From assembly GCA_964016885.1 (NCBI GenBank), contig OZ024744.1, positions 124,682,001-124,746,000 on the forward strand: a stretch of DNA of 64,000 nucleotides, read 5' to 3'. Shown here in pieces: positions 9,001 to 53,544 of the stretch. The translations under genes were made by a program, and so were the position numbers. The notes beneath the pieces are model-generated. The model searched no databases. It was given only the letters and a program-made list of their open reading frames with translations, and was not told the DNA's origin. Within the stretch, counting starts at the first letter, position 1. Each line of letters starts with the position of its first letter. The DNA comes from Eledone cirrhosa (lineage: Eukaryota).

Positions 9001-9518
9001 CCCAACTTAAATTAACCCCAACTCTACTTAACCCCAACTTAACTTAACCCCAACTTAACATAACCCCAACTTAAATTAACCCTAACTTAACTTAACCCCA
9101 ACTTAACTTAACCCCAACTTCAGTCAACCCCAACTTAACGTACACCCAACTTAACTCAGCCTCAACTTAACTTAGCCCCAACTTGAAGTAACCCCAACTT
9201 AACTCAACCCCAACTTAACTTAACCCCAACTTAACTTAACCCCAACTTAACTCAACCCCAATTTAACTCAACCCCAACTTAACTCAACCCCAACTTAACT
9301 TAACCCCAACTTAACTTAACCCTAACTTAACTTAACACCGACTTAACATAACCCCGACTTAAATTAACCCCAACTTAACTTTAACCCAACTTAACTTAAC
9401 CCCAATTTAGCTTATCCCCAACTTAACTTATCCCCAACTTAACCTAACCCCAACCTAACTTAACCCCAACTTAATTTAACCCCAACTTAATTTAACCCCA
9501 ACTTAACTTAAACCCAAC
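1..9518. repeat. 16-bp satellite array (CCCCAACTTAACTTAA)n with five inverted blocks and higher-order structure
   Basis: Continuous 16-bp period with point variants. G-strand blocks at ~3451-3763, 4835-5131, 5790-6134, 7077-7342 and 7953-8298. Confidence 0.97.
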
Positions 9519-9718
9519 NNNNNNNNNNNNNNNNNNNNNNNNNNNNNNNNNNNNNNNNNNNNNNNNNNNNNNNNNNNNNNNNNNNNNNNNNNNNNNNNNN
9601 NNNNNNNNNNNNNNNNNNNNNNNNNNNNNNNNNNNNNNNNNNNNNNNNNNNNNNNNNNNNNNNNNNNNNNNNNNNNNNNNNNNNNNNNNNNNNNNNNNNN
9701 NNNNNNNNNNNNNNNNNN
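9519..9718. other. Assembly gap (200 N)
   Basis: Run of exactly 200 N; round size suggests a scaffolding placeholder. Confidence 0.99.
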
Positions 9719-10149
9719 TTCCTTTATTCGTCCACGCCTTCCCGCTTCGATCGCGAGAAAGTAATCAATCTGTTTTGTGTGTGTGTCTGTGTGTGATACA
9801 AATTTGTTTTCTTAATTTGATAACCATGAATTGTTTCAACACCGGCCCTTTTAAGGGCCACTTATATTTTCAATAATCAGTTTAAATGGGTTGCACCGTA
9901 GCCACTTGGTAATACACTGCAAATCTCCCGTCAATCTATGAAGGTTTTGTAGTAGATTAGATCAAAACACAATCAGCAAGACAGTAATGGAATGAATAAT
10001 ATAAACATTTGTTTATAATTAAAGCCTTAAGATGTCCCTCCCTCCCTCCCTTCCTCCCTTCCTTCCTTCCTTCCTTCCTTCCTTACGATATACACTTTAA
10101 TAACATTGAAACTTATTTAATAAGTTTAAATTTTAAACACTTTTTATTC

Positions 10150-10632: not shown

Positions 10633-10840
10633 CGGAAAACGAACCATTCCCGGTTCGCTTTCGAAGCGGGTTTCCGAAAACAGCGCTTCTCTCGACCGGG
10701 CCCGTCGTCCGCTCGGCGGTGGTTTTCATCGTCCCAGGCACGGCTAACAGGCGGAGACGGGACAAACGCGCGTGTTCCTTTTTTTATCAGCCGCAGCGCC
10801 GTTCGTATATATGCTTAGGTTGTTTTTTTTTTAAATATCC

Positions 10841-11070
10841 TAAGTTAAGTTGGGGCTAAGTTAAGTTGGGGCTAAGTTAAGTTGAGGTTAAGTTGAGTTG
10901 GGGTTAAGTTAAGTGGGGGTTAAGTTAAGCTGGGGTTAAGTTAAGTTGAGGTTAAGTTAAGTTGGGGTTAAGTCAAGTTGGGGTTAAGTTAAGTTGGGGT
11001 TAAGTTAGGTTGGGGTTAAGTTAGGTTGGGGTTAAGTTAAGTTGGGGTTAAGTTAGGTTGCGGTTAAGTT
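10841..11070 (-). repeat. Short block (~14 units) of the same 16-bp satellite, G-strand orientation
   Basis: (GGGGTTAAGTTAAGTT)n; paralog at 49485-49714. Confidence 0.95.
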
Positions 11071-14000: not shown

Positions 14001-17000
14001 AAAGAATTTTGGCTATCAGATCGGGTTGAAAGGTATGGTTTCAGGTCGATCTGAAAGTCTAAAATGGAATTCACTCGGTTAGCTAACTTTTGATATATCG
14101 GAGATATCTTTCTGAAAATCACACCACACACTCCCAATGAGTGTCTGCACATGTACCAGTAATTACAGATGGATCCCACCACGGGCGGCCGGCCCACGAT
14201 CGAAAAGGTTACTCCGAAGCACACCATTCGCCGGCGGAATTCATTTAGCATGGGCAGTTTTTCTCGAAAATCAGACCACACACAGCCAATGAGTGTCCGC
14301 ACATGTACCAGTAATTACAGATGGATCCCACCACGGGCGGCTGGCCCACGATCGAAAAGGTTACTCCGCCTGCAAACGGTCATTTTCGAATTCGTTTTCT
14401 TCGAAGCACACGATTCGCCGGCGGACTTCAGCTGCCTCATTTAGCATGGGCAGTTTTTCTCGAAAATCACACCACACACAGCAAATGTGTGTCCGCACAT
14501 GTACCAGTAATTACAGATCGATTCCGGTGAAAATTCACTGAAAACGGGCCATTCGGCCCTGTGCGTCGATCGTGGGCCGGCCGGATGTTGACGGATCGAT
14601 GTGTAATTAGAAGTACATGTGCGGACACTCATTGGCTGTGCGTGGTATGCATTTCAGCAAGATATCTCCGTAACATCAAGAGTTATGGCTGTGGAGGCAC
14701 ACCTAGTCAAACGTAAACAAGCTCTGGAGCGTATACGCTTCGCGATTTTGTTTACGTTTGACTAGGTGTGCCTCCACAGCCACAACTCTTGATGTTACGG
14801 AGATATCTTGCTGAAATGCATACCACGCACAGCCAATGAGTGTCCGCACATGTACTTCTAATTACACATCGATCCGTCAACATCCGGCCGGCCCACGATC
14901 GACGCACAGGGCCGGATGGCCCGTTTGCAGTGAATTTTCACCGGAATCGATCTGTAATTACTGGTACATGTGCGGACACACATTTGCTGTGTGTGGTGTG
15001 ATTTTCGAGAAAGACTGCCCATGCTAAATGAGGAAGCTGAAGTCCGCCGGCGAATGGTGTGCTTCGAAGAAAACTAATTCGAAAATGACCGTTTGCAGGC
15101 GGAGTAACCTTTTCGATCGTGGGCCAGCCGCCCGTGGTGGGATACATCTGTAATTACTGGTACATGTGCGGACACACATTTGCTGTGTGTGGTGTGATTT
15201 TCGAGAAAGACTGCCCATGCTAAATGAGGAAGCTGAAGTCCGCCGGCGAATGGTGTGCTTCGAAGAAAACTAATTCGAAAATGACTATTTGCCGGCGGAA
15301 TCACCTTTTCGGTCCTGGTCCGGCCGGATCTTGCCGGATCGATCGGAAATTTGTGGACCATGTTCGGAAGGCCATTGTGCATGTGTGGTGAAAAAAATTT
15401 GTGTCGAAATCTTCTCGGAAAATAACGGATCGCCGGCGGAGATTGCCATTTCGATCGTGGGCCGGCCGGATCTTGTCGGATCGATTCGGACATATGTGCA
15501 TCGTGTTCGCAAGGCCCTTGTCTATGTGTGGTGTGATTTTCATAAAGAAATTCCGAAAAACCCAGTTTTAAATCTGATTTCGCCAAAGAATTTTGGCTAT
15601 CAGATCGGGTTGAAAGGTATGGTTTCAGGTCGATCTGAAAGTCTAAAATGGAATTCACTCGGTTAGCTAACTTTTGATATATCGGAGATATCTTTCTGAA
15701 AATCACACCACACACTCCCAATGAGTGTCTGCACATGTACCAGTAATTACAGATGGATCCCACCACGGGCGGCCGGCCCACGATCGAAAAGGTTACTCCG
15801 AAGCACACCATTCGCCGGCGGAATTCATTTAGCATGGGCAGTTTTTCTCGAAAATCACACCACACACAGCCAATGAGTGTCCGCACATGTACCAGTAATT
15901 ACAGATGGATCCCACCACGGGCGGCTGGCCCACGATCGAAAAGGTTACTCCGCCTGCAAACGGTCATTTTCGAATTCGTTTTCTTCGAAGCACACGATTC
16001 GCCGGCGGACTTCAGCTGCCTCATTTAGCATGGGCAGTTTTTCTCGAAAATCACACCACACACAGCAAATGTGTGTCCGCACATGTACCAGTAATTACAG
16101 ATCGATTCCGGTGAAAATTCACTGAAAACGGGCCATCCGGCCCTGTGCGTCGATCGTGGGCCGGCCGGATGTTGACGGATCGATGTGTAATTAGAAGTAC
16201 ATGTGCGGACACTCATTGGCTGTGCGTGGTATGCATTTCAGCAAGATATCTCCGTAACATCAAGAGTTATGGCTGTGGAGGCACACCTAGTCAAACGTAA
16301 ACAAGCTCTGGAGCGTATACGCTTCGCGATTTTGTTTACGTTTGACTAGGTGTGCCTCCACAGCCACAACTCTTGATGTTACGGAGATATCTTGCTGAAA
16401 TGCATACCACGCACAGCCAATGAGTGTCCGCACATGTACTTCTAATTACACATCGATCCGTCAACATCCGGCCGGCCCACGATCGACGCACAGGGCCGGA
16501 TGGCCCGTTTGCAGTGAATTTTCACCGGAATCGATCTGTAATTACTGGTACATGTGCGGACACACATTTGCTGTGTGTGGTGTGATTTTCGAGAAAGACT
16601 GCCCATGCTAAATGAGGAAGCTGAAGTCCGCCGGCGAATGGTGTGCTTCGAAGAAAACTAATTCGAAAATGACTATTTGCCGGCGGAATCACCTTTTCGG
16701 TCCTGGTCCGGCCGGATCTTGCCGGATCGATCGGAAATTTGTGGACCATGTTCGGAAGGCCATTGTGCATGTGTGGTGAAAAAAATTTGTGTCGAAATCT
16801 TCTCGGAAAATAACGGATCGCCGGTGGAGATTGCCATTTCGATCGTGGGCCGGCCGGATCTTGTCGGATCGATTCGGACATATGTGCATCGTGTTCGCAA
16901 GGCCCTTGTCTATGTGTGGTGTGATTTTCATAAAGAAATTCCGAAAAACCCAGTTTTAAATCTGATTTCGCCAAAGAATTTTGGCTATCAGATCGGGTTG

Positions 17001-17263
17001 AAAGGTATGGTTTCAGGTCGATCTGAAAGTCTAAAATGGAATTCACTCGGTTAGCTAACTATTGATATATCGGAGATATCTTTCTGAAAATCACACCACA
17101 CACTCCCAATGAGTGTCTGCACATGTACCAGTAATTACAGATGGATCCCACCACGGGCGGCCGGCCCACGATCGAAAAGGTTACTCCGAAGCACACCATT
17201 CGCCGGCGGAATTCATTTAGCATGGGCAGTTTTTCTCGAAAATCACACCACACACAGCCAATG
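11071..17263. repeat. Fold-back array: 196-bp CpG-rich monomers organised into 1584-bp palindromic higher-order units
   Basis: ORF track repeats every 1584 bp (12121, 13705, 15289) and mirrors about centres ~11382, 13150, 14734 and 16318. Monomer period 196 (11783 vs 11979). Confidence 0.95.
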
Positions 17264-28319: not shown

Positions 28320-31085
28320 TCAGGTGTAGTTTTGGCGTATTTCGGGAAGCATGAGTGTCTTAAAGGATGCAGTGTCTCGGCAGCTAACAATTGACGCAGG
28401 CAGTTTGTTCCATGTTTCAGCAACTCTGAGCGTGAAAAAATGTCTGCGAAAGTCATGGGAGCTGTGCTGTTTTCTTATCTTGTAGGCATGTCCACGTGTG
28501 TTAGACACATGGAGATCAAAGAGGCGCTCAGGGTTGCAGTTGGCGAGATGGTTAAAAACTTTGTGGGTATTCACCAAGTCCACTGCCAGATGTCGGAGCT
28601 TCAATGAATCCATGCCCAGGGAAGCAAGGCGTTCAGAGTATGGTAGGTGTCTGATGGAGGGTATGCGCTTGGTTGCACGTCTCTGAACAGCTTCCAGGAG
28701 GTCAATGTTCCGAGCAAGATAGGGGTTCCAGACTGATGATGCGAATTCCAAGTGTGGTCGCACCATAGCTGTATACAGTTTTAAATAGATGGCTGGAGAG
28801 CGGCTAACAAAGGTCTTGCTGAGTGATGCCAAGACACCCTCGGCCTTCTTGACAATCTTAGAGACATGCTTTGTCCAACGCAAATCGTTGCCGACAGTAA
28901 TGCCCAGGTCACGTTCACAAGAGGACTTTTTGATGTCAGTGTTGTGGAGGGAGTATGTGGACGCTGGATTTTTCCTTCCAAAATGCATGGTGGTACACTT
29001 GTCCACAGCCAGCTTCAGTTGCCAGTCTGTGATCCATTGCTGCATTGTGTCCAGGTCTGATTTTAGGAAAGAGTTGTAAATTTCAGGATCAGTCCTTTTG
29101 ATTTCAAGGTACAGCTTGATGTCATCTGCATATTTTAGTACCGTGGCATTCTGTAAGTTGGCATCTATGTCATTAATATATGCCACAAACAAAAGAGGAC
29201 CAAGAACAGATCCCTGTGGTACACCAGATGACATCTCATATGGTGAAGAATGCTGTCCTAGAACCGTGACTACTTTCCTTCGGCTGAGAATGAAGGATTT
29301 CAGCCAGTCGAAAAGATCATCCCTCACACCCATTGCAGAGAGTTTTGCCATAAGTCTTTTGTGTGGCACAGAATTAAAAGCCTTAGCAAAGTCAAGGTAA
29401 ACAACATCCACCCATGAGCCGCTGTCAGTGATCCGGGTGATGTCCTCAAGGAACTCGATAAGCTGATCACAGCAGCTGGAGTTAGGGATAAATCCAAACT
29501 GTGAGGGCCGGATGAGGCTGTGAGAGCTCCAGAAGTTCCAAAGTGTTTCTCTGACACAGGATTCCATCAGTTTGGCCATACAGCTAGTAAGACTGACTGG
29601 ACGATAGTTGACAGGTGACATGCGGTTGCCCTTTTTGAACAGGGGAATGACACTGGCAGTTTTCCACTGCTCCGGAGTAGCACCATTGCTGAGACAGTAT
29701 TGAAAGAAAAAAGAAAGCTGGCGCAAAAGGAAATCCCCGCCACGTTTGAGAAGCAGGTATGTCACACCATCAAGACCAGGGGAGGCATAGTTGCGCTTAT
29801 TCTTAAGGTGACGTCGCAACATTGCAGGTGTAAATTCCATAGTTGTTATGGAATTTGATGTTAGAGATGGTGGAGATGGTACATTCTGGTTTTCAACAGT
29901 AAAAATACTTGCATAGCACTCAGCAATGAGTTCTGCGCATTCCTTGGGATCGTCAGTGATCTGGCTTGTGTGGGGATTGCGAAGAGGACCAACTGGAGAG
30001 TGAGGTCTCTGCTTTGAATGAACATATTTCCAGAACACCTTACTGTCAGGATTGGTTGCGATGCACTGTTCAAATTCAAGCACTGCCTTCTTTGTCACTT
30101 GCTTGAGATGGTTAGAAGATTTATTCCGCTTTTTTCTGTTGGCATCTGATCTATGCAGTTTATATTCCCGTTCAGCGTTCCGACGTTCTTTCCTGGCAAG
30201 TCGGACTGCTGAAGTTTCCCAGATTGCACTTTTGGGGTGGTTATTTTTCCGCTTCCGTGGCACTGATGCTGCACACGCTATCCATATTGAGTCCAGGATG
30301 CTCTGGAGTATAGAGTTCACATCTCCAGAGTTATACATCTCATGCCAGTTTGGGCGCTGTAGCTCAGTGCAGTACAAGTTCCAATCCGCCCTCTTCCAAT
30401 CAAAGCAAGCAGATTGGAGATGGCTCTGGTTTTTGTTGCTGCCCTCAAGTGCCAGATTGGCAATGATCATAGCATGATCAGAGTCGCCTAGAGGTTCCTC
30501 AGTAGTACAACTGATAACCACTTCAGGAGTAGTGGTGAAGATCAGGTCCAAAGTGTTGTCACCTCTTGTTGGAGAGGTGACTACTTGTGACCAGTTTGAG
30601 TCCAGCACTAGTTCAAGGAAATCGTTTGCACCCTGTGGCCAACGAAAGGTTTCCCAATCGATCTCAGGATGATTGAAGTCACCTGCAATAAACACATAAG
30701 TGGCTGTTTTCTTGGCAGCAACTCTGAGGATATCGCAAAGCTGTGTGTCCTGATGGTAGTTTGGGGGGCGATAAACAACACCAAGCAGAAGTGTTGACAT
30801 GGTCATACGTATGTCACAGAAAAAAACTTCTTCCTGTGATTCGTTCAAATCAACGCAAGGAATTACCGAAAAGTTTGAACGAACGTAGACCATCACACCA
30901 CCACCACGGCGGTTAATGCGGTCCTTGCGGAAAAGGTTGTACCCAGTAATGGTGAAAACCCCATCACAGAGTAAGGAATGTGCCCATGTTTCCGTGACTG
31001 TGATGAAGTCAGGGTCGATGCTTCTGACGTAGGATTCGAACAGATGTATCTTGTTGCATAAACTGCGAGCATTTAAGGACAACAA
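28320..31085 (-). CDS. CR1-clade ORF2: apurinic-like endonuclease plus reverse transcriptase, 921 aa (frame open upstream to 31193)
   Basis: EN motifs NARS, TETW, VYRPP, GDFN, LDL, SDH. RT motifs NYRPVSLTS, QFGF, YLDFAKAF, GVPQGSVLGP, YADD. CR1-type C-terminus RPHLEFASSVWNP..VQRRATK..TRGH..WNKLP. Confidence 0.95.
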   Translation of the reverse strand: MLSLNARSLCNKIHLFESYVRSIDPDFITVTETWAHSLLCDGVFTITGYNLFRKDRINRRGGGVMVYVRSNFSVIPCVDLNESQEEVFFCDIRMTMSTLLLGVVYRPPNYHQDTQLCDILRVAAKKTATYVFIAGDFNHPEIDWETFRWPQGANDFLELVLDSNWSQVVTSPTRGDNTLDLIFTTTPEVVISCTTEEPLGDSDHAMIIANLALEGSNKNQSHLQSACFDWKRADWNLYCTELQRPNWHEMYNSGDVNSILQSILDSIWIACAASVPRKRKNNHPKSAIWETSAVRLARKERRNAEREYKLHRSDANRKKRNKSSNHLKQVTKKAVLEFEQCIATNPDSKVFWKYVHSKQRPHSPVGPLRNPHTSQITDDPKECAELIAECYASIFTVENQNVPSPPSLTSNSITTMEFTPAMLRRHLKNKRNYASPGLDGVTYLLLKRGGDFLLRQLSFFFQYCLSNGATPEQWKTASVIPLFKKGNRMSPVNYRPVSLTSCMAKLMESCVRETLWNFWSSHSLIRPSQFGFIPNSSCCDQLIEFLEDITRITDSGSWVDVVYLDFAKAFNSVPHKRLMAKLSAMGVRDDLFDWLKSFILSRRKVVTVLGQHSSPYEMSSGVPQGSVLGPLLFVAYINDIDANLQNATVLKYADDIKLYLEIKRTDPEIYNSFLKSDLDTMQQWITDWQLKLAVDKCTTMHFGRKNPASTYSLHNTDIKKSSCERDLGITVGNDLRWTKHVSKIVKKAEGVLASLSKTFVSRSPAIYLKLYTAMVRPHLEFASSVWNPYLARNIDLLEAVQRRATKRIPSIRHLPYSERLASLGMDSLKLRHLAVDLVNTHKVFNHLANCNPERLFDLHVSNTRGHAYKIRKQHSSHDFRRHFFTLRVAETWNKLPASIVSCRDTASFKTLMLPEIRQNYT

Positions 31086-31141
31086 TTTGTACCCTGCTCG
31101 CAGTCTATGATGGTGTGTAGAGGGTGGCAGGTTGTTCTGGT

Positions 31142-31296
31142 TTAGTTTCCCAGAGTTGTAGCAGTTTTTACATTGCCAGTTATTGTGGGTAGATCACACT
31201 CAGACCAGCTGGTATCTCTCTTCCACGTTTCACCCGCCTTGACAAACCTCCAGATCTGCCCATCATCACGCAGACTGAAACTTTCATCTTGTGCTG
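31142..31296 (-). pseudogene. C-terminal remnant of CR1 ORF1 (AQDESFSLRDDGQIWRF...TLGN*)
   Basis: Open frame immediately upstream of and overlapping ORF2, ending in GGA AAC TAA; cut by the 5' truncation. Confidence 0.6.
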
Positions 31297-34665: not shown

Positions 34666-35507
34666 TTCGTTTTCTCGACGGCTAGCCGCATTTCGTGATC
34701 CGCCTTTCGATTGCGCTTCCGTCGCGGCAAAAGAATTGCCTTTCCAGACCGCCGTCGCCCGACCGGACCCATGATAGAAGACGTTCGTTACCGTTGGAGC
34801 AACGCAAATTACTCCTCGGTTGACGCCAAAAACGAACGCCTTCCCGCCTCGCGCCGCCTTCTCCTCGCCGACCCTCGGCCTCGACGATTAGCCACTTTCC
34901 GTCACAGCAGTAGATACGCGTCCGTCGTAATAGCCGTCATTTTAACGCAGGAGAAACGCCTAATTGCCCTGCACCGCGTTTGACGGCGATCTACGACGGC
35001 GACGATGCGCGCACTCTTCCTTGCTGCGACGAAGGTTTCGGCTTTTCGTCGTGGACCCGGTCAGGTCATGCCGCTGACCTCGCGTTACGGCGACGCGAGA
35101 AGACGTTCGTTACCGCTGGAGCAACGCAAATTACTCCTCGGTTGACGCCAAAAACGAACGCCTCGCGCCGCCGCTTCCTCCTCGGCCTCGACGATTAGCC
35201 GCTTTCCGTCACAGCAGTAGATACGCGTCCATCGTAATAGCCGTCATTTTAACGCAGGAGAAACGCCTTGACGACGATATACGACGGGTCGACGACGCGC
35301 GCACTCTTTCTGCTGCGACGAAGGTTTTGGCTTTTCGTTGTGGACCCGGTCGGGTCATGCCTCTGACCTCGCGTTGCGTCGCCACCGCCGCGGCGGGCTT
35401 GGGTTTAGCCGTAGCTACCCTCGTTTTGCCAACGGCGACGCGAGAAGACGTTCGTTACCGCTGGAGCAACGCAAATTACTCCTCGGATGAGGCCAAAAAC
35501 GAACGCT
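34666..35507 (+). repeat. GC-rich block homologous to the 18S-upstream (ETS-like) region, internally duplicated, no rRNA downstream
   Basis: Shares GAAGACGTTCGTTACCGCTGGAGCAACGCAAATTACTCCTCGG and CCGTCACAGCAGTAG..GTAATAGCCGTCATTTT with 41648-42720. Confidence 0.8.
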
Positions 35508-41559: not shown

Positions 41560-41647
41560 ACCCTAACCCTAAACCTAACCCCAACTCCAACTCTGACCCT
41601 AAACCTAACCCCAACCCCAACCCCAACCCTAACCCTAACCCTAACCC
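41560..41647. repeat. Degenerate telomere-like hexamers (CCCTAA/CCCCAA)
   Basis: About 14 hexamers directly upstream of the 169/172-bp repeats. Confidence 0.8.
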
Positions 41648-42400
41648 ACGATAGAAGACGTTCGTTACCGCTGGAGCAACGCAAATTACTCCTCGGTTGA
41701 CGCCAAAAACGAACGCCTTCTCGACGGCTAGCCGCATTTCGTGATCCGCCTTTCGATTGCGCTTCCGTCGCGGAAAAAGAATTGCCTTTATAGGCCGCCG
41801 CCGCCCGACCGGACCCACGATAGAAGACGTTCGTTACCGCTGGAGCAACGCAAATTACTCCTCGGTTGACGCCAAAAACGAACGCCTTCTCGACGGCTAG
41901 CCGCATTTCGTGATCCGCCTTTCGATTGCGCTTCCGTCGCGGAAAAAGAATTGCCTTTATAGGCCGCCGCCGCCCGACCGGACCCACGATAGAAGACGTT
42001 CGTTACCGCTGGAGCAACGCAAATTACTCCTCGGTTGACGCCAAAAACGAACGCCTTCTCGACGGCTAGCCGCATTTCGTGATCCGCCTTTCGATTGCGC
42101 TTCCGTCGCGGAAAAAGAATTGCCTTTATAGGCCGCCGCCGCCGCCCGACCGGACCCACGATAGAAGACGTTCGTTACCGCTGGAGCAACGCAAATTACT
42201 CCTCGGTTGACGCCAAAAACGAACGCCTTCTCGACGGCTAGCCGCATTTCGTGATCCGCCTTTCGATTGCGCTTCCGTCGCGGAAAAAGAATTGCCTTTA
42301 TAGGCCGCCGCCGCCGCCCGACCGGACCCACGATAGAAGACGTTCGTTACCGCTGGAGCAACGCAAATTACTCCTCGGTTGACGCCAAAAACGAACGCCT
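41648..42400 (+). repeat. 169/172-bp GC-rich tandem repeat upstream of 18S (ETS/IGS-like subrepeat), 4 full copies plus a partial
   Basis: Periods 169, 169, 172, 172, differing by one GCC; lies ~360 bp upstream of the 18S 5' end. Confidence 0.88.
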
Positions 42401-42759
42401 TCCGGTTCGGGCGACGTAAAAGTCTGTAGCCTTTTCGCCGATCCTCGACGATTATCCGCCTTCCGAACAACCGCCTTTCCGCCGTCACAGCAGTAGGTAC
42501 TCGTCCGTCGTAATAGCCGTCATTTTAATGCAGGAGAAACGCCTAAATGCACTGCGATTGACGACGATCTACGACGCGCTTACTCTTCCTTGCTGCGACG
42601 AAGGTTTCGTTCGGCTTTTCGTCGTGGACCCGGTCAGGTCATGCCGCTGATCTCGCGTTGCGTCGTTACCGCTGGAGCAACGCAAATTACTCCTCGTTTA
42701 ACGCCAACATCGAACGCGCTTCGGTTCTCGGTCGTCGTTGTTTTGTTTCGTGCGGAAGA

Positions 42760-42945
42760 TACCTGGGTGATCCTGCCAGTAGTCATATGCTTGTCTCAAA
42801 GCTTAAGCCATGCAAGTGGAAGTTCATGCCGTAAACGAAAATGGTGAAACCGCGAATGGCTCAGGAACCGGATCTAATCCTCGGGACCGTATTCCTCACC
42901 GCGAGGAGAGGATAACTGTGGCAATTCTAGAGCTAATACATGCAA
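42760..42945 (+). pseudogene. 18S rRNA 5' end fragment
   Basis: TACCTGGGTGATCCTGCCAGTAGTCATATGCTTGTCTCAAAGCTTAAGCCATGCA; GGTGAAACCGCGAATGGCTCA; GGATAACTGTGGCAATTCTAGAGCTAATACATGC, all near-universal eukaryotic SSU motifs. Confidence 0.93.
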
Positions 42946-45900
42946 TTGAGATCGGAGAGGGAGCGATCCGTCTGCTTGATTCCGATAACGAACGAGACAT
43001 TCGTATCCGAAAGAACGTTTGTCTGGAAACTGGTGCAGTCAGTGAGTCGAAAAAAAAATATCTCGGTGGTAGTAGCAAATATTCGAACGAGACATTCGTA
43101 TGCGAAAGAACGTTTGTCGGTGGTAGTAGCAAATATTCGAACGAGACATTCGTATGCGAAAGAACGTTTGTCGGTGGTAGTAGCAAATATTCGAACGAGA
43201 CATTCGTATGCGAAAGAACGTTTGTCTGGAAGTGGCGATCCATGCCCGGTGGATAGTTGGTTCCGGGTTTTACTATGATTGTTGCAAAACAGAAACTTAA
43301 AGGGATTGACAGAATTTGCGATTCCGGAGAGGGGGCGATCCGTCTGCTTGATTCCGATAACGAACGAGACATTCGTATCCGAAAGAACGTTTGTCTGGAA
43401 ACTGGTGAGTCAGTGAGTCGAAAAAAAAAATATCTCGGTGGTAGTAGCAAATATTCGAACGAGACATTCGTATGCGAAAGAACGTTTGTCGGTGGTAGTA
43501 GCAAATATTCGAACGAGACATTCGTATGCGAAAGAACGTTTGTCGGTGGTAGTAGCAAATATTCGAACGAGACATTCGTAGGCGAAAGAAAAATATCTCG
43601 GTGGTAGTAGCAAATATTCGAACGAGACATTCGTATTCGAAAGAACGTTTGTCTGGAAGTTGCGATCCATGCCCGGTGGATAGTTGGTTCCGGGTTTTAC
43701 TATGATTGTTGCAAAACAGAAACTTAAAGGGATTGACAGAATTTGCGATTCCGGAGAGGGGGCGATCCGTCTGCTTGATTCCGATAACGAACGAGACATT
43801 CGTATCCGAAAGAACGTTTGTCTGGAAACTGGTGAGTCAGTGAGTCGAAAAAAAAAATATCTCGGTGGTAGTAGCAAATATTCGAACGAGACATTCGTAT
43901 GCGAAAGAACGTTTGTCGGTGGTAGTAGCAAATATTCGAACGAGACATTCGTATGCGAAAGAACGTTTGTCTGGAAGTGGCGATCCATGCCCGGTGGATA
44001 GTTGGTTCCGGGTTTTACTATGATTGTTGCAAAACAGAAACTTAAAGGGATTGACAGAATTTGCGATTCCGGAGAGAGGGCGATCCGTCTGCTTGATTCC
44101 GATAACGAACGAGACATTCGTATCCGAAAGAACGTTTGTCTGGAAACTGGTGCAGTCAGTGAGTCGAAAAAAAAATATCTCGGTGGTAGTAGCAAATATT
44201 CGAACGAGACATTCGTATGCGAAAGAACGTTTGTCGGTGGTAGTAGCAAATATTCGAACGAGACATTCGTATGCGAAAGAACGTTTGTCTGGAAGTGGCG
44301 ATCCATGCCCGGTGGATAGTTGGTTCCGGGTTTTACTATGATTGTTGCAAAACAGAAACTTAAAGGGATTGACAGAATTTGCGATTCCGGAGAGGGGGCG
44401 ATCCGTCTGCTTGATTCCGATAACGAACGAGACATTCGTATCCGAAAGAACGTTTGTCTGGAAACTGGTGAGTCAGTGAGTCGAAAAAAAAAATATCTCG
44501 GTGGTAGTAGCAAATATTCGAACGAGACATTCGTATGCGAAAGAACGTTTGTCGGTGGTAGTAGCAAATATTCGAACGAGACATTCGTATGCGAAAGAAC
44601 GTTTGTCGGTGGTAGTAGCAAATATTCGAACGAGACATTCGTAGGCGAAAGAAAAATATCTCGGTGGTAGTAGCAAATATTCGAACGAGACATTCGTATT
44701 CGAAAGAACGTTTGTCTGGAAGTTGCGATCCATGCCCGGTGGATAGTTGGTTCCGGGTTTTACTATGATTGTTGCAAAACAGAAACTTAAAGGGATTGAC
44801 AGAATTTGCGATTCCGGAGAGGGGGCGATCCGTCTGCTTGATTCCGATAACGAACGAGACATTCGTATCCGAAAGAACGTTTGTCTGGAAACTGGTGAGT
44901 CAGTGAGTCGAAAAAAAAAATATCTCGGTGGTAGTAGCAAATATTCGAACGAGACATTCGTATGCGAAAGAACGTTTGTCGGTGGTAGTAGCAAATATTC
45001 GAACGAGACATTCGTATGCGAAAGAACGTTTGTCGGTGGTAGTAGCAAATATTCGAACGAGACATTCGTATGCGAAAGAACGTTTGTCTGGAAGTGGCGA
45101 TCCATGCCCGGTGGATAGTTGGTTCCGGGTTTTACTATGATTGTTGCAAAACAGAAACTTAAAGGGATTGACAGAATTTGCGATTCCGGAGAGAGGGCGA
45201 TCCGTCTGCTTGATTCCGATAACGAACGAGACATTCGTATCCGAAAGAACGTTTGTCTGGAAACTGGTGAGTCAGTGAGTCGAAAAAAAAATATCTCGGT
45301 GGTAGTAGCGAATATTCGTATGCGAAAGAAAAGATCTCGGTGGTAGTAGCAAATATTCGAACGAGACATTCGTAGGCGAAAGAAAAATATCTCGGTGGTA
45401 GTAGCAAATATTCGAACGAGACATTCGTATGCGAAAGAACGTTTGTCGGTGGTAGTAGCAAATATTCGAACGAGACATTCGTATGCGAAAGAACGTTTGT
45501 CGGTGGTAGTAGCAAATATTCGAACGAGACATTCGTATGCGAAAGAACGTTTGTCTGGAAGTGGCGATCCATGCTCGGTGGATAGTTGGTTCCGGGTTTT
45601 ACTATGATTGTTGCAAAACAGAAACTTAAAGGGATTGACAGAATTTGCGATTCCGGAGAGGGGGCGATCCGTCTGCTTGATTCCGATAACGAACGAGACA
45701 TTCGTATCCGAAAGAACGTTTGTCTGGAAACTGGTGAGTCAGTGAGTCGAAAAAAAAATATCTCGGTGGTAGTAGCAAATATTCGAACGAGACATTCGTA
45801 TGCGAAAGAACGTTTGTCGGTGGTAGTAGCAAATATTCGAACGAGACATTCGTATGCGAAAGAACGTTTGTCTGGAAGTGGCGATCCATGCCCGGTGGAT

Positions 45901-47680
45901 AGTTGGTTCCGGGTTTTACTATGATTGTTGCAAAACAGAAACTTAAAGGGATTGACAGAATTTGCGATTCCGGAGAGGGGGCGATCCGTCTGCTTGATTC
46001 CGATAACGAACGAGACATTCGTATCCGAAAGAACGTTTGTCTGGAAACTGGTGAGTCGAAAAAAAAATATCTCGGTGGTAGTAGCAAATATTCGTATGCG
46101 AAAGAAAAGATCTCGGTGGTAGTAGCAAATATTCGAACGAGACATTCGTAGGCGAAAGAAAAATATCTCGGTGGTAGTAGCAAATATTCGAACGAGACAT
46201 TCGTATGCGAAAGAACGTTTGTCGGTGGTAGTAGCAAATATTCGAACGAGACATTCGTATGCGAAAGAACGTTTGTCGGTGGTAGTAGCAAATATTCGAA
46301 CGAGACATTCGTATGCGAAAGAACGTTTGTCTGGAAGTGGCGATCCATGCCCGGTGGATAGTTGGTTCCGGGTTTTACTATGATTGTTGCAAAACAGAAA
46401 CTTAAAGGGATTGACAGAATTTGCCATTCCGGAGAGGGGGCGATCCGTCTGCTTGATTCCGATAACGAACGAGACATTCGTATCCGAAAGAACGTTTGTC
46501 TGGAAACTGGTGAGTCAGTGAGTCGAAAAAAAAATATCTCGGTGGTAGTAGCAAATATTCGAACGAGACATTCGTATTCGAAAGAACGTTTGTCTGGAAG
46601 TTGCGATCCATGCCCGGTGGATAGTTGGTTCCGGGCTTTACTATGATTGTTGCAAAACAGAAACTTAAAGGGATTGACAGAATTTGCGATTCCGGAGAGG
46701 GGGCGATCCGTCTGCTTGATTTCGATAACGAACGAGACATTCGTATCCGAAAGAACGTTTGTCTGGAAACTGGTGAGTCAGTGAGTCGAAAAAAAAAATA
46801 TCTCGGTGGTAGTAGCAAATATTCGAACGAGACATTCGTATGCGAAAGAACGTTTGTCGGTGGTAGTAGCAAATATTCGAACGAGACATTCGTATGCGAA
46901 AGAACGTTTGTCGGTGGTAGTAGCAAATATTCGAACGAGACATTCGTATGCGAAAGAACGTTTGTCTGGAAGTGGCGATCCATGCCCGGTGGATAGTTGG
47001 TTCCGGGTTTTACTATGATTGTTGCAAAACAGAAACTTAAAGGGATTGACAGAATTTGCGATTCCAGAGAGAGGGCGATCCGTCTGCTTGATTCCGATAA
47101 CGAACGAGACATTCGTATCCGAAAGAACGTTTGTCTGGAAACTGGTGAGTCAGTGAGTCGAAAAAAAAATATCTCGGTGGTAGTAGCAAATATTCGAACG
47201 AGACATTCGTATGCGAAAGAACGTTTGTCTGGAAGTGGCGATCCATGCTCGGTGGATAGTTGGTTCCGGGTTTTACTATGATTGTTGCAAAACAGAAACT
47301 TAAAGGGATTGACAGAATTTGCGATTCCGGAGAGGGGGCGATCCGTCTGCTTGATTCCGATAACGAACGAGACATTCGTATCCGAAAGAACGTTTGTCTG
47401 GAAACTGGTGAGTCAGTGAGTCGAAAAAAAAATATCTCGGTGGTAGTAGCAAATATTCGTATGCGAAAGAAAAGATCTCGGTGGTAGTAGCAAATATTCG
47501 AACGAGACATTCGTATGCGAAAGAAAAATATCTCGGTGGTAGTAGCAAATATTCGAACGAGACATTCGTATTCGAAAGAACGTTTGTCTGGAAGTTGCGA
47601 TCCATGCCCGGTGGATAGTTGGTTCCGGGCTTTACTATGATTGTTGCAAAACAGAAACTTAAAGGAATTGACAGAATTTT
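42946..47680 (+). repeat. rRNA-derived mosaic satellite: 13 units of 263-467 bp with a variable 54-bp sub-repeat
   Basis: Unit markers at 43257, 43684, 44002, 44320, 44747, 45119, 45586, 45903, 46362, 46625, 46997, 47260, 47619. Contains 18S motifs (TTCCGATAACGAACGAGAC, GAAACTTAAAGG.ATTGAC) and a 28S motif (GGTGGTAGTAGCAAATATTC). Confidence 0.9.
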
Positions 47681-47699
47681 CGAATCGACATCAACTCGG

Positions 47700-48060
47700 C
47701 TACGGCTATCCCGTCGAGTACGAGAGTATCGCGGGATCAGAGCAACGGTTTGCTAGGCTGCCTCTGAGCGATAACGGCTGAACGCCTCCTCTAAGCCGGA
47801 ACCCTAGCCGGACCCGAGTTGTTTTTCGACAAGCGTCTCGACCTTCTTAAGGCCCATGCCTTAGTTTGGCGATTGCCGTCCGTTCGCCGACGGCGGCAGC
47901 GTCAGCGGAAATGCCATTCTGTGACGACTACGACGATTCGTCGTCGTCGTCGTCCATTCGATTTCCTGAAAGAGATAGAGACTAAAGTGATCAAATTGTT
48001 CGGAGTTACGTGCTTAGTAGAGCAGCTACCACACTGCAATCTATTGAGAGTTTTCTGACG
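47700..48060 (+). pseudogene. 28S rRNA 3'-terminal remnant
   Basis: AGTACGAGAG, CTGAACGCCTC..TAAG and TAGAGCAGC....CTGCAATCTATTGAGAGT occur in the order of conserved LSU 3'-end motifs. Confidence 0.75.
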
Positions 48061-49484
48061 AACGATACAATCCGCCCACGTGGCGCCAGAAAGGGAGAAG
48101 AAAAGAAAAGTTAGACGCCGCCGATCGATCGGTTCGTTGTTTTACGTGTACACAGCTTGTGTGTGTGTCTGTATGTGATACAAGCCGCCTATCCGTCTTC
48201 CAAGTAAGTTTTGTGTGTAGACTGCGGAAAGAAATCCAATCCGCCGTCTAGGCGGTTCTGCCGCCGACCCATACTTTTGCGAGTCGCTCCCGGGAAAGAC
48301 AGGCGGCAAGACGGCGTGTATACACGACGCCTTCCGTCTTCCGCCTCGAACCCGGGCAAACGTTCCTTTATTCGTCCACGCCTTCCCGCTTCGATCGCGA
48401 GAAAGTAATCAATCTGTTTTGTGTGTGTGTCTGTGTGTGATACAAATTTGTTTTCTTAATTTGATAACCATGAATTGTTTCAACACCGGCCCTTTTAAGG
48501 GCCACTTATATTTTCAATAATCAGTTTAAATGGGTTGCACCGTAGCCACTTGGTAATACACTGCAAATCTCCCGTCAATCTATGAAGGTTTTGTAGTAGA
48601 TTAGATCAAAACACAATCAGCAAGACAGTAATGGAATGAATAATATAAACATTTGTTTATAATTAAAGCCTTAAGATGTCCCTCCCTCCCTCCCTTCCTC
48701 CCTTCCTTCCTTCCTTCCTTCCTTCCTTACGATATACACTTTAATAACATTGAAACTTATTTAATAAGTTTAAATTTTAAACACTTTTTATTCAGACGTA
48801 CCGCGATAAGTAACTAGATATGTTCTAACGAATAATCCGCGATGTGGCGAGGATTACCGCGATAGGAAATTAGATACGTTCCAAAGAAATATCCGCGAAA
48901 AGTGAACCGCGATATAGCGGGTTCACCAGCCAGTGTATTACTGGTACTTTATTTTATCGACCCCCATAAGGATGAAAGGCAAAGTTAACTGTGCAATAAC
49001 AAAGGGAGATAACCTCGTCTTTTTTTTTTTACGGAGTTATTTCCCTTTAAATTTTATCTATTACTTATGATGATACAATTTAATCAGTTCTTAGCTGTCG
49101 AGACACTGCATCCTTTAAAACCTCCATGGAACAAGCTACCTGCAACAGTTGTTAGCTGTCGAGACACTGCATCTTTTAAAACCTCCATGGAACAAACTAC
49201 CTGCATCAGTTGTTAGGGTCTGAGTTCAAATCACGCCGAGGAGGTTAACTTTGCCTTTCATCCTTACGGGGTCGGTCGGAAAACGAACCATTCCCGGTTC
49301 GCTTTCGAAGCGGGTTTCCGAAAACAGCGCTTCTCTCGACCGGGCCCGTCGTCCGCTCGGCGGTGGTTTTCATCGTCCCAGGCACGGCTAACAGGCGGAG
49401 ACGGGACAAACGCGCGTGTTCCTTTTTTTATCAGCCGCAGCGCCGTTCGTATATATGCTTAGGTTGTTTTTTTTTTAAATATCC

Positions 49485-49714
49485 TAAGTTAAGTTGGGGC
49501 TAAGTTAAGTTGGGGCTAAGTTAAGTTGAGGTTAAGTTGAGTTGGGGTTAAGTTAAGTGGGGGTTAAGTTAAGCTGGGGTTAAGTTAAGTTGAGGTTAAG
49601 TTAAGTTGGGGTTAAGTCAAGTTGGGGTTAAGTTAAGTTGGGGTTAAGTTAGGTTGGGGTTAAGTTAGGTTGGGGTTAAGTTAAGTTGGGGTTAAGTTAG
49701 GTTGCGGTTAAGTT
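49485..49714 (-). repeat. 16-bp satellite block, copy 2
   Basis: Same sequence as 10841-11070. Confidence 0.95.
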
Positions 49715-52700
49715 ACATTCGCCGCCGGACTTCAGCTTCCTCATTTAGCATGGGCAGTTTTTCTTGAAAATCACACCACACACAGCAAATGTGTGTCCGC
49801 ACATGTACCAGTAATTACAGATCGATTCCGGTGAAAATTCACTGAAAACGGGCCATCCGGCCCTGTGCGTCGATCGTGGGCCGGCCGGATGTTGACGGAT
49901 CGATGTGTAATTAGAAGTACATGTGCGGACACTCATTGGCTGTGCGTGGTATGCATTTCAGCAAGATATCTCCGTAACATCAAGAGTTATGGCTGTGGAG
50001 GCACACCTAGTCAAACGTAAACAAGGTCTGGAGCGTTTACGCTTCGCGATTTTGTTTACGTTTGACTAGGTGTGCCTCCACAGCCACAACTCTTGATGTT
50101 ACGGAGATATCTTGCTGAAATGCATACCGCGCACAGCCAATGAGTGTCCGCACATGTACTTCTAATTACACATCGATCCGTCAACATCCGGCCGGCCCAC
50201 GATCGACGCACAGGGCCGGATGGCCCGTTTTCAGTGAATTTTCACCGGAATCGATCTGTAATTACTGGTACATGTGCGGAGACACATTTGCTGTGTGTGG
50301 TGTGATTTTCAAGAAAAACTGCCCATGCTAAATGAGGAAGCTGAAGTCCGCCGGCGAATGGTGTGCTTCGAAGAAAACTAATTCGAAAATGACCGTTTGC
50401 AGGCGGAGTAACCTTTTCGATCGTGGGCCAGCCGCCCGTGGTGGGATCCATCTGTAATTACTGGTACATGTGCGGACATACATTTGCTGTGTGTGGTGTG
50501 ATTTTCAAGAAGAACTGCCCATGCTAAATGAGGAAGCTGAAGTCCGCCGGCGAATGGTGTGCTTCGAAGAAAACTAATTCGAAAATGACCGTTTGCAGGC
50601 GGGGTAACCTTTTCGATCGTGGGCCAGCCGCCCGTGGTGGGATCCATCTGTAATTACTGGTACATGTGCGGACACACATTTGCTGTGTGTGGTGTGATTT
50701 TCGAGAAAGACTGCCCATGCTAAATGAGGAAGCTGAAGTCCGCCGGCGAATGGTGTGCTTCGAAGAAAACTAATTCGAAAATGACTATTTGCCGGCGGAA
50801 TCACCTTTTCGGTCCTGGTCCGGCCGGATCTTGCCGGATCGATCGGAAATTTGTGGACCATGTTCGGAAGGCCATTGTGCATGTGTGGTGAAAAAAATTT
50901 GTGTCGAAATCTTCTCGGAAAATAACGGATCGCCGGCGGAGATTGCCATTTCGATCGTGGGCCGGCCGGATCTTGTCGGATCGATTCGGACATATGTGCA
51001 TCGTGTTCGCAAGGCCCTTGTCTATGTGTGGTGTGATTTTCATAAAGAAATTCCGAAAAACCCAGTTTTAAATCTGATTTCGCCAAAGAATTTTGGCTAT
51101 CAGATCGGGTTGAAAGGTATGGTTTCAGGTCGATCTGAAAGTCTAAAATGGAATTCACTCGGTTAGCTAACTATTGATATATCGGAGATATCTTTCTGAA
51201 AATCACACCACACACTCCCAATGAGTGTCTGCACATGTACCAGTAATTACAGATGGATCCCACCACGGGCGGCCGGCCCACGATCGAAAAGGTTACTCCG
51301 AAGCACACCATTCGCCGGCGGAATTCATTTAGCATGGGCAGTTTTTCTCGAAAATCACACCACACACAGCCAATGAGTGTCCGCACATGTACCAGTAATT
51401 ACAGATGGATCCCACCACGGGCGGCTGGCCCACGATCGAAAAGGTTACTCCGCCTGCAAACGGTCATTTTCGAATTCGTTTTCTTCGAAGCACACGATTC
51501 GCCGGCGGACTTCAGCTGCCTCATTTAGCATGGGCAGTTTTTCTCGAAAATCACACCACACACAGCAAATGTGTGTCCGCACATGTACCAGTAATTACAG
51601 ATCGATTCCGGTGAAAATTCACTGAAAACGGGCCATTCGGCCCTGTGCGTCGATCGTGGGCCGGCCGGATGTTGACGGATCGATGTGTAATTAGAAGTAC
51701 ATGTGCGGACACTCATTGGCTGTGCGTGGTATGCATTTCAGCAAGATATCTCCGTAACATCAAGAGTTATGGCTGTGGAGGCACACCTAGTCAAACGTAA
51801 ACAAGCTCTGGAGCGTATACGCTTCGCGATTTTGTTTACGTTTGACTAGGTGTGCCTCCACAGCCACAACTCTTGATGTTACGGAGATATCTTGCTGAAA
51901 TGCATACCACGCACAGCCAATGAGTGTCCGCACATGTACTTCTAATTACACATCGATCCGTCAACATCCGGCCGGCCCACGATCGACGCACAGGGCCGGA
52001 TGGCCCGTTTGCAGTGAATTTTCACCGGAATCGATCTGTAATTACTGGTACATGTGCGGACACACATTTGCTGTGTGTGGTGTGATTTTCACGAAAAACT
52101 GCCCATGCTAAATGAGGAAGCTGAAGTCCGCCGGCGAATGGTGTGCTTCGAAGAAAACTAATTCGAAAATGACCGTTTGCAGGCGGAGTAACCTTTTCGA
52201 TCGTGGGCCAGCCGCCCGTGGTGGGATACATCTGTAATTACTGGTACATGTGCGGACACACATTTGCTGTGTGTGGTGTGATTTTCGAGAAAGACTGCCC
52301 ATGCTAAATGAGGAAGCTGAAGTCCGCCGGCGAATGGTGTGCTTCGAAGAAAACTAATTCGAAAATGACTATTTGCCGGCGGAATCACCTTTTCGGTCCT
52401 GGTCCGGCCGGATCTTGCCGGATCGATCGGAAATTTGTGGACCATGTTCGGAAGGCCATTGTGCATGTGTGGTGAAAAAAATTTGTGTCGAAATCTTCTC
52501 GGAAAATAACGGATCGCCGGCGGAGATTGCCATTTCGATCGTGGGCCGGCCGGATCTTGTCGGATCGATTCGGACATATGTGCATCGTGTTCGCAAGGCC
52601 CTTGTCTATGTGTGGTGTGATTTTCATAAAGAAATTCCGAAAAACCCAGTTTTAAATCTGATTTCGCCAAAGAATTTTGGCTATCAGATCGGGTTGAAAG

Positions 52701-53544
52701 GTATGGTTTCAGGTCGATCTGAAAGTCTAAAATGGAATTCACTCGGTTAGCTAACTTTTGATATATCGGAGATATCTTTCTGAAAATCACACCACACACT
52801 CCTAATGAGTGTCTGCACATGTACCAGTAATTACAGATGGATCCCACCACGGGCGGCCGGCCCACGATCGAAAAGGTTACTCCGAAGCACACCATTCGCC
52901 GGCGGAATTCATTTAGCATGGGCAGTTTTTCTCGAAAATCACACCACACACAGCCAATGAGTGTCCGCACATGTACCAGTAATTACAGATGGATCCCACC
53001 ACGGGCGGCTGGCCCACGATCGAAAAGGTTACTCCGCCTGCAAACGGTCATTTTCGAATTAGTTTTCTTCGAAGCACACCATTCGCCGGCGGACTTCAGC
53101 TTCCTCATTTAGCATGGGCAGTTTTTCTCGAAAATCACACCACACACAGCAAATGTGTGTCCGCACATGTACCAGTAATTACACATCGATTCCGGTGAAA
53201 ATTCACTGAAAACGGGCCATTCTGCCCTGTGCGTCGATCGTGGGCCGGCCGGATGTTGACGGATCGATGTGTAATTAGAAGTACATGTGCGGACACTCAT
53301 TGGCTGTGCGTGGTATGCATTTCACTAAGATATCTCCGTAACATCAAGAGTTATGGCTGTGGAGGCACACCTAGTCAAACGTAAACAAGGTCTGGAGCGT
53401 TTACGCTTCGCGATTTTGTTTACGTTTGACTAGGTGTGCCTCCACAGCGACAACTCTTGATGTTACGGAGATATCTTGCTGAAATTCATACCACGCACAG
53501 CCAATGAGTGTCCGCACATGTACCTGTAATTACACATCGATCCG
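49715..53544. repeat. Fold-back array, copy 2 (palindrome centres ~50038, 51818, 53402)
   Basis: Same 196-bp monomer and 1584-bp unit; centre spacings 1780 (1584+196) and 1584. Confidence 0.95.

Follow-up and report, generated by a model that had tools for sequence, protein, structure and literature searches.

A scrambled 18S/28S/ITS1 tandem repeat in Eledone cirrhosa, probably a promoterless and silent derivative of rDNA

The window analysed here is a 64,000-nucleotide stretch of the Eledone cirrhosa assembly GCA_964016885.1 (contig OZ024744.1, positions 124,682,001 to 124,746,000), which contains an assembly gap at 9519–9718. It carries an rDNA-derived cassette that is real and larger than an earlier note on this DNA described, in which 13 mosaic units (4,730 bp) lie between an 18S head of 191 nt and a 28S tail with deletions. 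The cassette and its borders, in window positions, are composed as follows.

41560 to 41647, + strand: degenerate telomere-like (TAACCC)n tract, to which the cassette 5′ border is joined via a common ACCC
41644 to 42402, + strand: 5′ETS-derived repeat of 169–172 bp, 4.5 copies, 93–95% identical
42443 to 42759, + strand: 5′ETS remnant with ~0.8 kb deleted
42760 to 42950, + strand: 18S head (nt 1–191), with 4 substitutions and indels relative to the true gene
42951 to 47680, + strand: mosaic VNTR, 13 units of 263–467 bp
47688 to 48075, + strand: 28S 3′ end, with three deletions (26, 33 and 15 nt) and a mutated segment that we take to be the sarcin-ricin loop
48159 to 48414, + strand: 3′ETS/IGS remnant, stopping ~100 bp before the first spacer promoter-like motif
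48444 to 48527, + strand: piece of a dispersed large palindrome that matches the histone 3′ stem-loop model RF00032

The true 18S 5′ end and 28S 3′ end that had been reported around the 13 units were both confirmed. The head at 42760–42950 is 94.5% identical to the genome's own 5′ETS end and 18S 1–191, and the tail at 47688–48075 matches RF02543 (E = 6e-13). Short repeats bound all three tail deletions, two of which take out a predicted hairpin. The number of internal 54–55 bp subunits varies from one mosaic unit to the next. The R2-site region is absent from the cassette, and no match to 5.8S was found in it. Its borders adjoin the telomere-like tract and the palindromic repeat; the window's RF00032 piece is 95% identical to the dispersed palindrome. 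A histone 3′ end (RF00032 at 48483) was rejected, as many of the best genome matches are inverted pairs 90 bp apart, and no histone-like ORF was found among frames of at least 120 aa. Protein coding in the mosaic was also set aside, its frames being stop-to-stop repeat frames only.

The minimal mosaic unit is 263 nt long, and 193 of these nucleotides belong to seven out-of-order sense pieces when compared with the genome's own rDNA, four from 18S, two from 28S and one from ITS1. Two further short pieces (9 + 11 nt, 20 nt together) are inverted ITS1. In the first unit the pieces are arranged as follows.

42953 to 42998, + strand: 18S:581–592 joined to 18S:2042–2080 at the 5-nt microhomology GGAGC
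43000 to 43018, + strand: ITS1:289–307 (19/19)
43017 to 43025, − strand: inverted ITS1:372–380, 9 nt, a likely templated insertion
43046 to 43056, − strand: inverted ITS1:309–319, 11 nt, in part an A-run, a likely templated insertion
43060 to 43098, + strand: 28S:2083–2121 (38/39), the core of the 54-bp subunit
43233 to 43250, + strand: 28S:1396–1413 (17/18)
43253 to 43313, + strand: 18S:1843–1896 with one altered block, joined to 18S:1976–1986 at the 6-nt microhomology ATTGAC
43319 to 43333, + strand: 18S:575–589, which opens the next unit

Exact matches of 19, 23 and 34 nt occur in the unit, versus at most 14 nt in 300 unit shuffles; matches of 9–10 nt (28S:1071, 1751, 1900 and 3758) were at chance level by shuffling and were excluded from all counts. 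rRNA variants of this species recur in the pieces, whose divergence from true rRNA is similar to that of the head (1–2 changes per 39 nt versus 4 per 188). A check run on the species' own rDNA, including an uninterrupted true unit, supported the earlier claim that the pieces are non-adjacent and found them non-collinear: the order runs backwards, for instance, from 28S:2121 to ITS1:289 and from 18S:1986 to 18S:575. The mosaic unit showed no folding signal (z = −0.25).

Several details of the first description require revision. CATTCGTAT and TGCGAAAG, which had been read as 18S, are instead a 19/19 match to ITS1:289–307, and ITS is therefore recognisable. The pieces are not all sense, given the 9- and 11-nt inverted ITS1 pieces. 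What was taken for a 1063-bp higher-order repeat is a duplication, 855 bp long and identical, that is local rather than array-wide; unit order varies between cassettes. The pieces 28S:1396–1413 and 18S:575–592 had been missed, as had the 59-fold repetition of the cassette.

The assembly holds 59 cassettes, 44 of them on one chromosome (C28), mostly 30–50 kb apart. They contain 2–53 units each (28 of the 59 examined), in an order that is not the same between cassettes, and one unit-to-unit junction is present in 667 exact copies. The head and tail anchors are common to all 28 complete cassettes examined; in C18 the tail is cut short. On C28, no true 18S marker and no gene-type promoter motif were found. 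The array thus consists of head-to-tail homogenised monomers, homologous to 45S and amplified outside the canonical rDNA arrays. The cassette lies in a 30–50 kb macro-unit made up of LINE sequence, simple repeats and further bits of rDNA, and neighbouring macro-units, LINE included, are 94–99.6% identical in long blocks. Between-copy variation amounts to 0–0.95 columns per 100 nt in the rDNA-derived flanks and 0–1.16 in the non-rDNA flanks. Two further rDNA-derived features of the macro-unit lie in the window.

34671 to 35506, + strand: second 5′ETS mosaic, rearranged, without the derived TATAGG
49280 to 49485, + strand: separate fragment of 28S:691–895, with a second instance at 10636–10841

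The cassette has diverged 2–9% from true rDNA. No intermediate forms were found among the 16 dispersed rDNA stretches compared, and the cassette allele was found in none of 20 true or orphan rDNA loci. Orphan rDNA copies elsewhere carry five internal deletions with a like tendency to be bounded by short repeats.

We considered whether the mosaic could result from misassembly or from library preparation, for example through chimeras formed in PCR or from primers, or could be an rRNA gene that is divergent yet collinear. The gap within the window would be in keeping with misassembly, and several of the pieces may coincide with widely used primer regions. However, the 59 cassettes differ in unit order, the pieces bear the species' own rRNA variants, and their order is non-collinear with an uninterrupted true unit. 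The mosaic unit was also recovered in contigs of four runs from four studies, one of which may be the assembly's own source, and in one of the four, the public, DNA-like run X19, a contig spans the terminal junction without any difference from the assembly. The read-derived contigs and the piece map have already largely refuted this alternative, which we regard as exceedingly improbable. In X19, the depth of the cassette is ~1:1 with that of the true rDNA alleles. In runs X22–X24, which carry other organism codes, the unit is present without fixed differences, and in X23 and X24 there is little coverage outside the high-copy unit; these runs therefore give no demonstration of cross-species conservation. 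The earlier proposal of a satellite born from scrambled rRNA is supported by the non-collinear pieces, the 667 exact junction copies and the read-derived contigs.

The junctions give clues to how the unit arose. All four firmly mapped junctions show microhomology (5, 10, 4 and 6 nt), lengths that random joins within the same pre-rRNA reach with p = 0.007, 0.00015, 0.022 and 0.003; the ITS1:289–307 piece is reached via the 10-nt 18S/28S and then the 4-nt 28S/ITS1 microhomology. The inverted ITS1 pieces originate at most 75 nt from the sense ITS1 piece, and two such inverted matches were obtained in 0.015% of 20,000 shuffles of the linker and never with the other rDNA windows examined. SD-MMEJ, as outlined in PMC2943611, predicts microhomology joins and templated insertions. 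Both above-chance microhomology and locally templated insertions were found here, the inserts being short and one of them partly an A-run.

We consider it fairly probable that the cassette derives from rDNA, has no promoter, and acquired a core of tandemly repeated, scrambled 18S/28S/ITS1 pieces, likely through microhomology-mediated repair of broken rDNA, before being amplified into a probably silent satellite. Serial template switches or end-joins of the SD-MMEJ, Pol-theta or MMBIR type, at microhomologies of 4–10 nt, would have reduced ~9 kb of unit (reference numbering, 1.24-kb R2-like insert included) to a chimera of ~263 bp, in which local snap-back would have added copied ITS1 segments. 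Slippage and unequal exchange would then have multiplied the chimera, together with its 54-bp subunit, to give a VNTR of 2–53 units between the fixed head and tail. The cassette may have been amplified as a passenger of the 30–50 kb unit, giving a macrosatellite of at least 44 copies that would since have evolved unconstrained and without an abundant transcript.

Alternatively, the chimera could have been made at the RNA level, by an R2 reverse transcriptase that jumped between pre-rRNA fragments, with the cDNA replacing the rDNA core before amplification. One 28S copy in the genome contains an R2-like ORF of 995 aa, whose best PDB match is an R2 protein (E = 1.6e-114); the seven main pieces are all sense and lie within pre-rRNA, ITS1 included; and PMC3414825 documents R2 template jumping to small RNAs in vivo. 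On the other hand, a plain jump on sense RNA could not have produced the two inverted ITS1 pieces, and the internal 4–10 nt microhomologies would be easier to reconcile with annealing than with end-to-end jumps. The cassette borders showed neither R2 sequence nor a poly(A) tail nor an R2-site junction, and for its own deleted elements the account in PMC3414825 favours DNA recombination. We find this RNA-level route improbable.

True units contain 11 copies each of a Pol I promoter-like motif, of which 18 gene-type copies exist genome-wide, none of them on C28; we infer that it is a promoter from its repetition, its position and a plant motif in PMC6589552. This motif and its region are absent from the cassette macro-unit, and the sequence upstream of the cassette is 5′ETS-derived, corresponding to sequence downstream of the inferred start site. 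Because the 169-bp repeats derive from the 5′ETS, they were ruled out as inherited spacer promoters. Each of the 169–172 bp repeats carries the derived TTTATAGG, where true units have TTTACAGA or TTTTCAGA; the TATAGG thus gained in the four upstream repeats (41789–42299) resembles the true start motif. In a weak test using contigs only, with uncertain coverage of this species, no run recorded as RNA contained more than 0.04 of the words. The suggestion that the array lies inside its own Pol I-read transcription unit accordingly finds no support, given the missing motif, the 5′ETS origin of the upstream sequence and, weakly, the RNA runs. Variants among units affect 20 of 139 rRNA-matching columns versus 12 of 55 others (Fisher p = 0.28), and frequent variants 10 versus 5 columns (p = 0.77), both at low power in a young array. 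Compared with a functional 45S gene, the cassette shows no promoter-like region and no 5.8S match, its order is scrambled and the putative sarcin-ricin loop is mutated. It is probably a silent satellite.

The choice of pieces is nevertheless biased. Five of the seven sense pieces fall in windows with conservation of at least 0.8, as ~16% of windows do (p = 0.002), and four of six do so (p = 0.008) after removal of the piece used to choose the comparison loci. A shared-word bias was rejected as the cause, as it acts in the opposite direction, and so was a bias in predicted local structure or unpaired regions (p = 0.69 for RNA, 0.48 for DNA). The enrichment in conserved rRNA leaves some weight to a role as an rRNA mimic or small-RNA source. 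Transcription might start in the TATAGG repeats, come from read-through or proceed on the opposite strand, and the array might be kept for rRNA-matching small RNAs or as a multimeric decoy for factors that recognise conserved rRNA motifs, such as snoRNPs or silencing complexes, tuning rDNA output or silencing inserted units. Two mechanistic causes of the conserved-core enrichment having been tested and rejected, such a role would also accord with the head and tail fixed in 28 cassettes, the ~1:1 depth in X19, the derived TATAGG in four upstream repeats, and the R2-site insert in most assembled true units, which would supply a motive for rDNA silencing. Yet the true promoter region is missing, no RNA-recorded run holds the stretch (weak test), frequent variants strike rRNA-matching positions, the unit gives no structure signal, the pieces are about as diverged from true rRNA as the head, and the enrichment concerns 6–7 pieces and was spotted post hoc. 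We consider maintenance of this kind unlikely, and give the same low weight to the idea of a dummy rDNA array, as numerous as the true genes, in which universally conserved rRNA motifs form a VNTR whose transcript, a multimeric rRNA mimic or a precursor of small RNAs, would regulate or silence rDNA, such as the many R2-inserted units. The R2 target site (28S ~3700) was rejected as a decoy piece, since it is not among the pieces.

Some observations sit uneasily with the probable silent satellite. A depth close to that of true rDNA is unexpected for a passenger, and the conserved-rRNA bias, the fixed anchors (28 of 28) and the gained TATAGG also speak against it.

Our literature search found no description of such a cassette architecture, and none on cephalopod 18S length. 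The tomato IGS satellite (PMC2679016) and As51 of characiform fishes (PMC13170303) are likewise tandem, homogenised, 45S-descended and located outside canonical arrays; as described there, they stem from intergenic-spacer subrepeats, with the coding sequence eliminated in tomato. In contrast, the Eledone monomer is an 18S, 28S and ITS1 chimera set between an 18S head and a 28S tail, within a cassette that is itself repeated. A coding-core rather than spacer origin sets the cassette apart from the rDNA-derived satellites found in print. Displaced human rDNA pseudogenes, in the account of PMC5381670, are similarly non-functional and off the main arrays, as are orphans in this genome, but decay in place to random sequence, whereas the cassette is scrambled, 2–9% diverged and recently amplified; its backward jumps do not fit the collinear decay of a displaced unit. 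The short microhomologies and local templated insertions of SD-MMEJ/Pol-theta junctions (PMC2943611) resemble those of the cassette, although such junctions are known as single scars, while here a satellite monomer would have formed from a chain of joins. R2 SIDEs together with R2/R1 hybrid SIDEs (PMC3414825), and SINE28 (PMC10946416), are also short, internally deleted or chimeric, and born at the rDNA locus, and one SIDE contains ITS1 sequence (PMC3414825). SIDEs, however, retain the ends of the retroelement and target the R1/R2 site, and SINE28 copies are dispersed; retroelement sequence is absent from the cassette, which has spread in tandem.

With ~60 assembled cassettes and more than 660 units bearing conserved 18S and 28S motifs, the array would be expected to bias rDNA copy-number estimates, FISH and rRNA-primer assays in this species. 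Silent or not, it is an unusually legible record of the birth of a satellite: each join in the monomer can be followed back to the parent gene, and one array displays amplification at two nested levels. If the bias towards conserved motifs reflects selection, the array would represent a new kind of rDNA-regulating locus.

The cassette, a gutted copy of rDNA, carries a true 18S 5' end and a 28S 3' end, as the earlier note had proposed, and between them lies a mosaic of 4,730 bp made up of 13 units. Its parts are as follows, with rRNA positions numbered on a reference true rDNA unit.

42716-42950: head, with 94.5% identity to the end of the 5'ETS plus 18S 1-191
47688-48108: tail, matching the 28S 3' end
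Minimal unit (263 bp), first part: 18S:2042-2080, ITS1:289-307, a 40-nt linker, 28S:2083-2121, a second ITS1:289-307
Minimal unit, second part: 28S:1396-1413, 18S:1843-1896 (one block altered), 18S:1976-1986, 18S:575-592, then restart
Inverted ITS1:372-380 and ITS1:309-319: both within the 40-nt linker

Sense pieces account for 193 of the 263 nt, and the unit contains exact runs of 19, 23 and 34 nt, as compared to at most 14 nt in 300 shuffles. The piece order is not collinear with true rDNA, so the objection that the segments are collinear in the species' own rRNA fails. The unit is indeed stitched from non-adjacent rRNA pieces, but these are not all in sense, as the linker holds two inverted ITS1 pieces; nor is the ITS unrecognisable, since ITS1:289-307 is present. 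The 28S and ITS1 block makes up a 54-bp subunit whose number varies, and the supposed 1063-bp higher-order repeat is actually a single identical duplication of 855 bp.

In the 3.0-Gb assembly, full-length RF01960 matches lie outside the window on C2, C4, C12 and C25, and a true-18S marker matches 23 times on eight contigs and never on C28, the contig of the window. The reference is one C12 unit, comprising an 18S of 2,876 nt, a great length reminiscent of coleoid cephalopods, a 5.8S and a 28S of 6,342 nt, whose numbering past ~3700 takes in a 1,240-nt insert. No paper on the length of 18S in cephalopods was found. All seven source segments are also present letter for letter in a single uninterrupted true unit. 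The R2 site is interrupted in most assembled true 28S copies, in many by an insert of ~1.2 kb; only one of 40 scored matches (C12:25175744) spans an intact site, and one more bears a small scar.

28S:3700-4938 of the reference unit (C12, L018): ~1.2-kb R2-site insert
L172:3952-6936 (C10:26688000 onward): R2-like reverse transcriptase ORF, 995 aa, carried by a 3.8-kb insert that occupies the R2 site in one orphan copy of 28S

Given the patches that it has in common with a longer R2-like element, the ~1.2-kb insert looks like a non-autonomous, SIDE-like derivative. Two orphan rDNA deletions on C2 (L175, 114.06 Mb; L162, 7.58 Mb) are broken at 28S:2120 and rejoined at ITS1:322, at or beside mosaic-piece borders; these breaks, two of ten orphan breakpoints, are possibly recurrent fragile sites. 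Isolated copies of 18S nt 1-411 on C3 (L164, 291.16 Mb) and C6 (L171, 98.23 Mb) share the same ends and are 100% identical.

The phenomenon is larger than the earlier note reported. The head junction occurs 59 times in the assembly (44 on C28, a single one on C18 and the other 14 on unplaced contigs), its reversed control does not occur there, and one unit-to-unit junction is found 667 times. The C28 cassettes span 124.72-126.45 Mb. In the 28 complete cassettes examined, out of 59, the units number 2-53 (median 16), and their order varies from cassette to cassette. Each C28 cassette is embedded in a macro-unit, mostly 30-50 kb, together with a LINE ORF, simple repeats, a second 5'ETS mosaic and a scrap of 28S:691-895; neighbouring macro-units are 94-99.6% identical over long blocks.

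Window 28320-31193, minus strand: LINE ORF, endonuclease and reverse transcriptase, 957 aa; the block recurs in the next macro-unit
Window 1-9518, with stretches L035 and L036: 16-bp satellite CCCCAACTTAACTTAA, at least 29 kb preceding the array
Window 11072-17263 and 49716-53544: ~1.58-kb repeat built from 196-bp units, direct and inverted
Window 48444-48527 and 9800-9883, and stretches L176 and L179: dispersed large palindromic repeat
C18:6722132-6731227 (L033): sole C18 cassette, 23 units, tail truncated

Short islands of the 16-bp satellite also occur within each macro-unit. The arms of the palindromic repeat, which is frequent on C18 at 4.9-12.7 Mb, score above the Rfam histone 3' stem-loop cut-off. 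In the C18 cassette, the 169-bp repeat, a 5'ETS-derived element found upstream of the head, starts afresh 2.8 kb past the truncated tail.

Six public sequencing runs of unrecorded kind (four studies, four organism codes) contain 0.48-0.65 of the words searched, and the remaining 18 of 24 run rows, five of them recorded as RNA, contain 0.04. Four of the six were compared over window 47290-49480, through contigs only. One X19 contig crosses the terminal junction with zero differences, providing read-derived support, and X19 may be the source of the assembly itself. Contig depth in X19 is 4,062-4,107 for cassette-specific sequence, 4,085-4,090 for the non-rDNA flank and 4,128-4,244 for true-28S-allele contigs, picked out by alignment. 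Because the depth is even across the non-rDNA flank and true rRNA is not in excess, X19 appears to be a DNA-like run. The ratio of cassette to true rDNA in X19 is near 1:1, contig depth being no copy number, and is not firm, since true alleles are apparently rarer in X22 (5.9/42.6 at one site). X23 and X24 cover chiefly the high-copy unit. It is very unlikely that the mosaic is an artefact.

The four firmly mapped junctions, to which the count was restricted, show microhomologies of 5, 10, 4 and 6 nt. When 200,000 joins were drawn at random within this pre-rRNA, these lengths were attained with probabilities of 0.007, 0.00015, 0.022 and 0.003, respectively. Both inverted pieces originate no more than 75 nt from the sense ITS1 piece; a pair of inverted matches of at least 9 nt arises in 0.015% of 20,000 shuffles, while a single match is common, being seen in 2.6% of shuffles and in 9% of other windows. 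Microhomology with locally templated inserts is the signature of SD-MMEJ (PMC2943611). The tail bears three deletions, each between short repeats, two of which take out a predicted hairpin, and the 5' border of the cassette meets a telomere-like tract via ACCC. The unit probably arose by template switching at the DNA level, and unequal exchange would then have acted at both the unit and the macro-unit levels. An RNA route, with an R2-like reverse transcriptase jumping templates, is possible, given the R2-like ORF inside a 28S copy and the in vivo template jumps by R2 (PMC3414825), but the inverted pieces and the internal microhomologies disfavour it. We consider that the cassette is probably a product of error-prone repair, and silent.

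In true units, TATATAGGG occurs ten times in ~710-bp spacer repeats and once ~2.2 kb ahead of the 18S. This layout, and agreement with the plant Pol I start motif (PMC6589552), suggest that TATATAGGG serves as a spacer and gene promoter motif. A genome-wide motif search found 18 gene-type copies, none of which is on C28 and 15 of which precede a true 18S marker by 1.6-2.4 kb, and the 390-bp promoter region matches the macro-unit only in a 33-bp spacer word, downstream of the tail; both observations speak against the proposal that Pol I may still read the array. The cassette starts at ~ETS:217, within the putative transcribed region. In the 169-bp repeats, TTTACAGA is altered to TTTATAGG, whose six-letter likeness to the start motif, pointing towards transcription, may be due to chance. 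The tail has a mutated loop, which we take to be the sarcin-ricin loop, and the unit folds no better than shuffled sequences. The cassette could be found in none of the five recorded RNA rows, a weak test. It thus seems improbable that the cassette is a transcribed rRNA mimic.

Column-variation tests, of low power, gave no sign of constraint on the unit or flanks. The unit comparison drew on 301-323 units, taken from 23 complete cassettes plus an open one; in it 20 of 139 rRNA-matching and 12 of 55 other columns are variable (p 0.28), and frequent variants number 10 and 5, respectively (p 0.77). Across 24-27 copies, the truncated C18 copy being left out of the tail and flank comparison, variable columns per 100 nt range over 0-0.95 in rDNA-derived and 0-1.16 in non-rDNA flanks. 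When scored against 79 metagenome rDNA loci, five of the seven pieces fall within windows whose conservation is at least 0.8 (expected per piece 13-18%; p 0.002), as do four of six (p 0.008) minus the locus-selecting piece and with the R2-like insert masked. Shared words are rarer in conserved windows, not commoner, and the pieces are no more unpaired than average; neither candidate cause therefore explains the bias. The bias counts against the silent-satellite reading, and may stem from small numbers, post hoc choice or selection.

The cassette differs from IGS-derived satellites (PMC2679016, PMC13170303) and from a collinear rDNA pseudogene (PMC5381670). A functional rDNA unit and an R2 SIDE were rejected as identities. 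A review published in 2024 that deals with rDNA and mobile elements (PMC10946416) holds no such case in the parts examined, and no element of the same architecture was found in the literature searched, which lay mostly outside subscription journals and excluded supplements with their possible repeat lists; this accords with the earlier note. The non-collinear pieces, the 667 junction copies and the features expected of an rDNA-derived satellite bear out its proposal of a new satellite born from scrambled rRNA: the cassette is real, and is a new form of rDNA-derived satellite.
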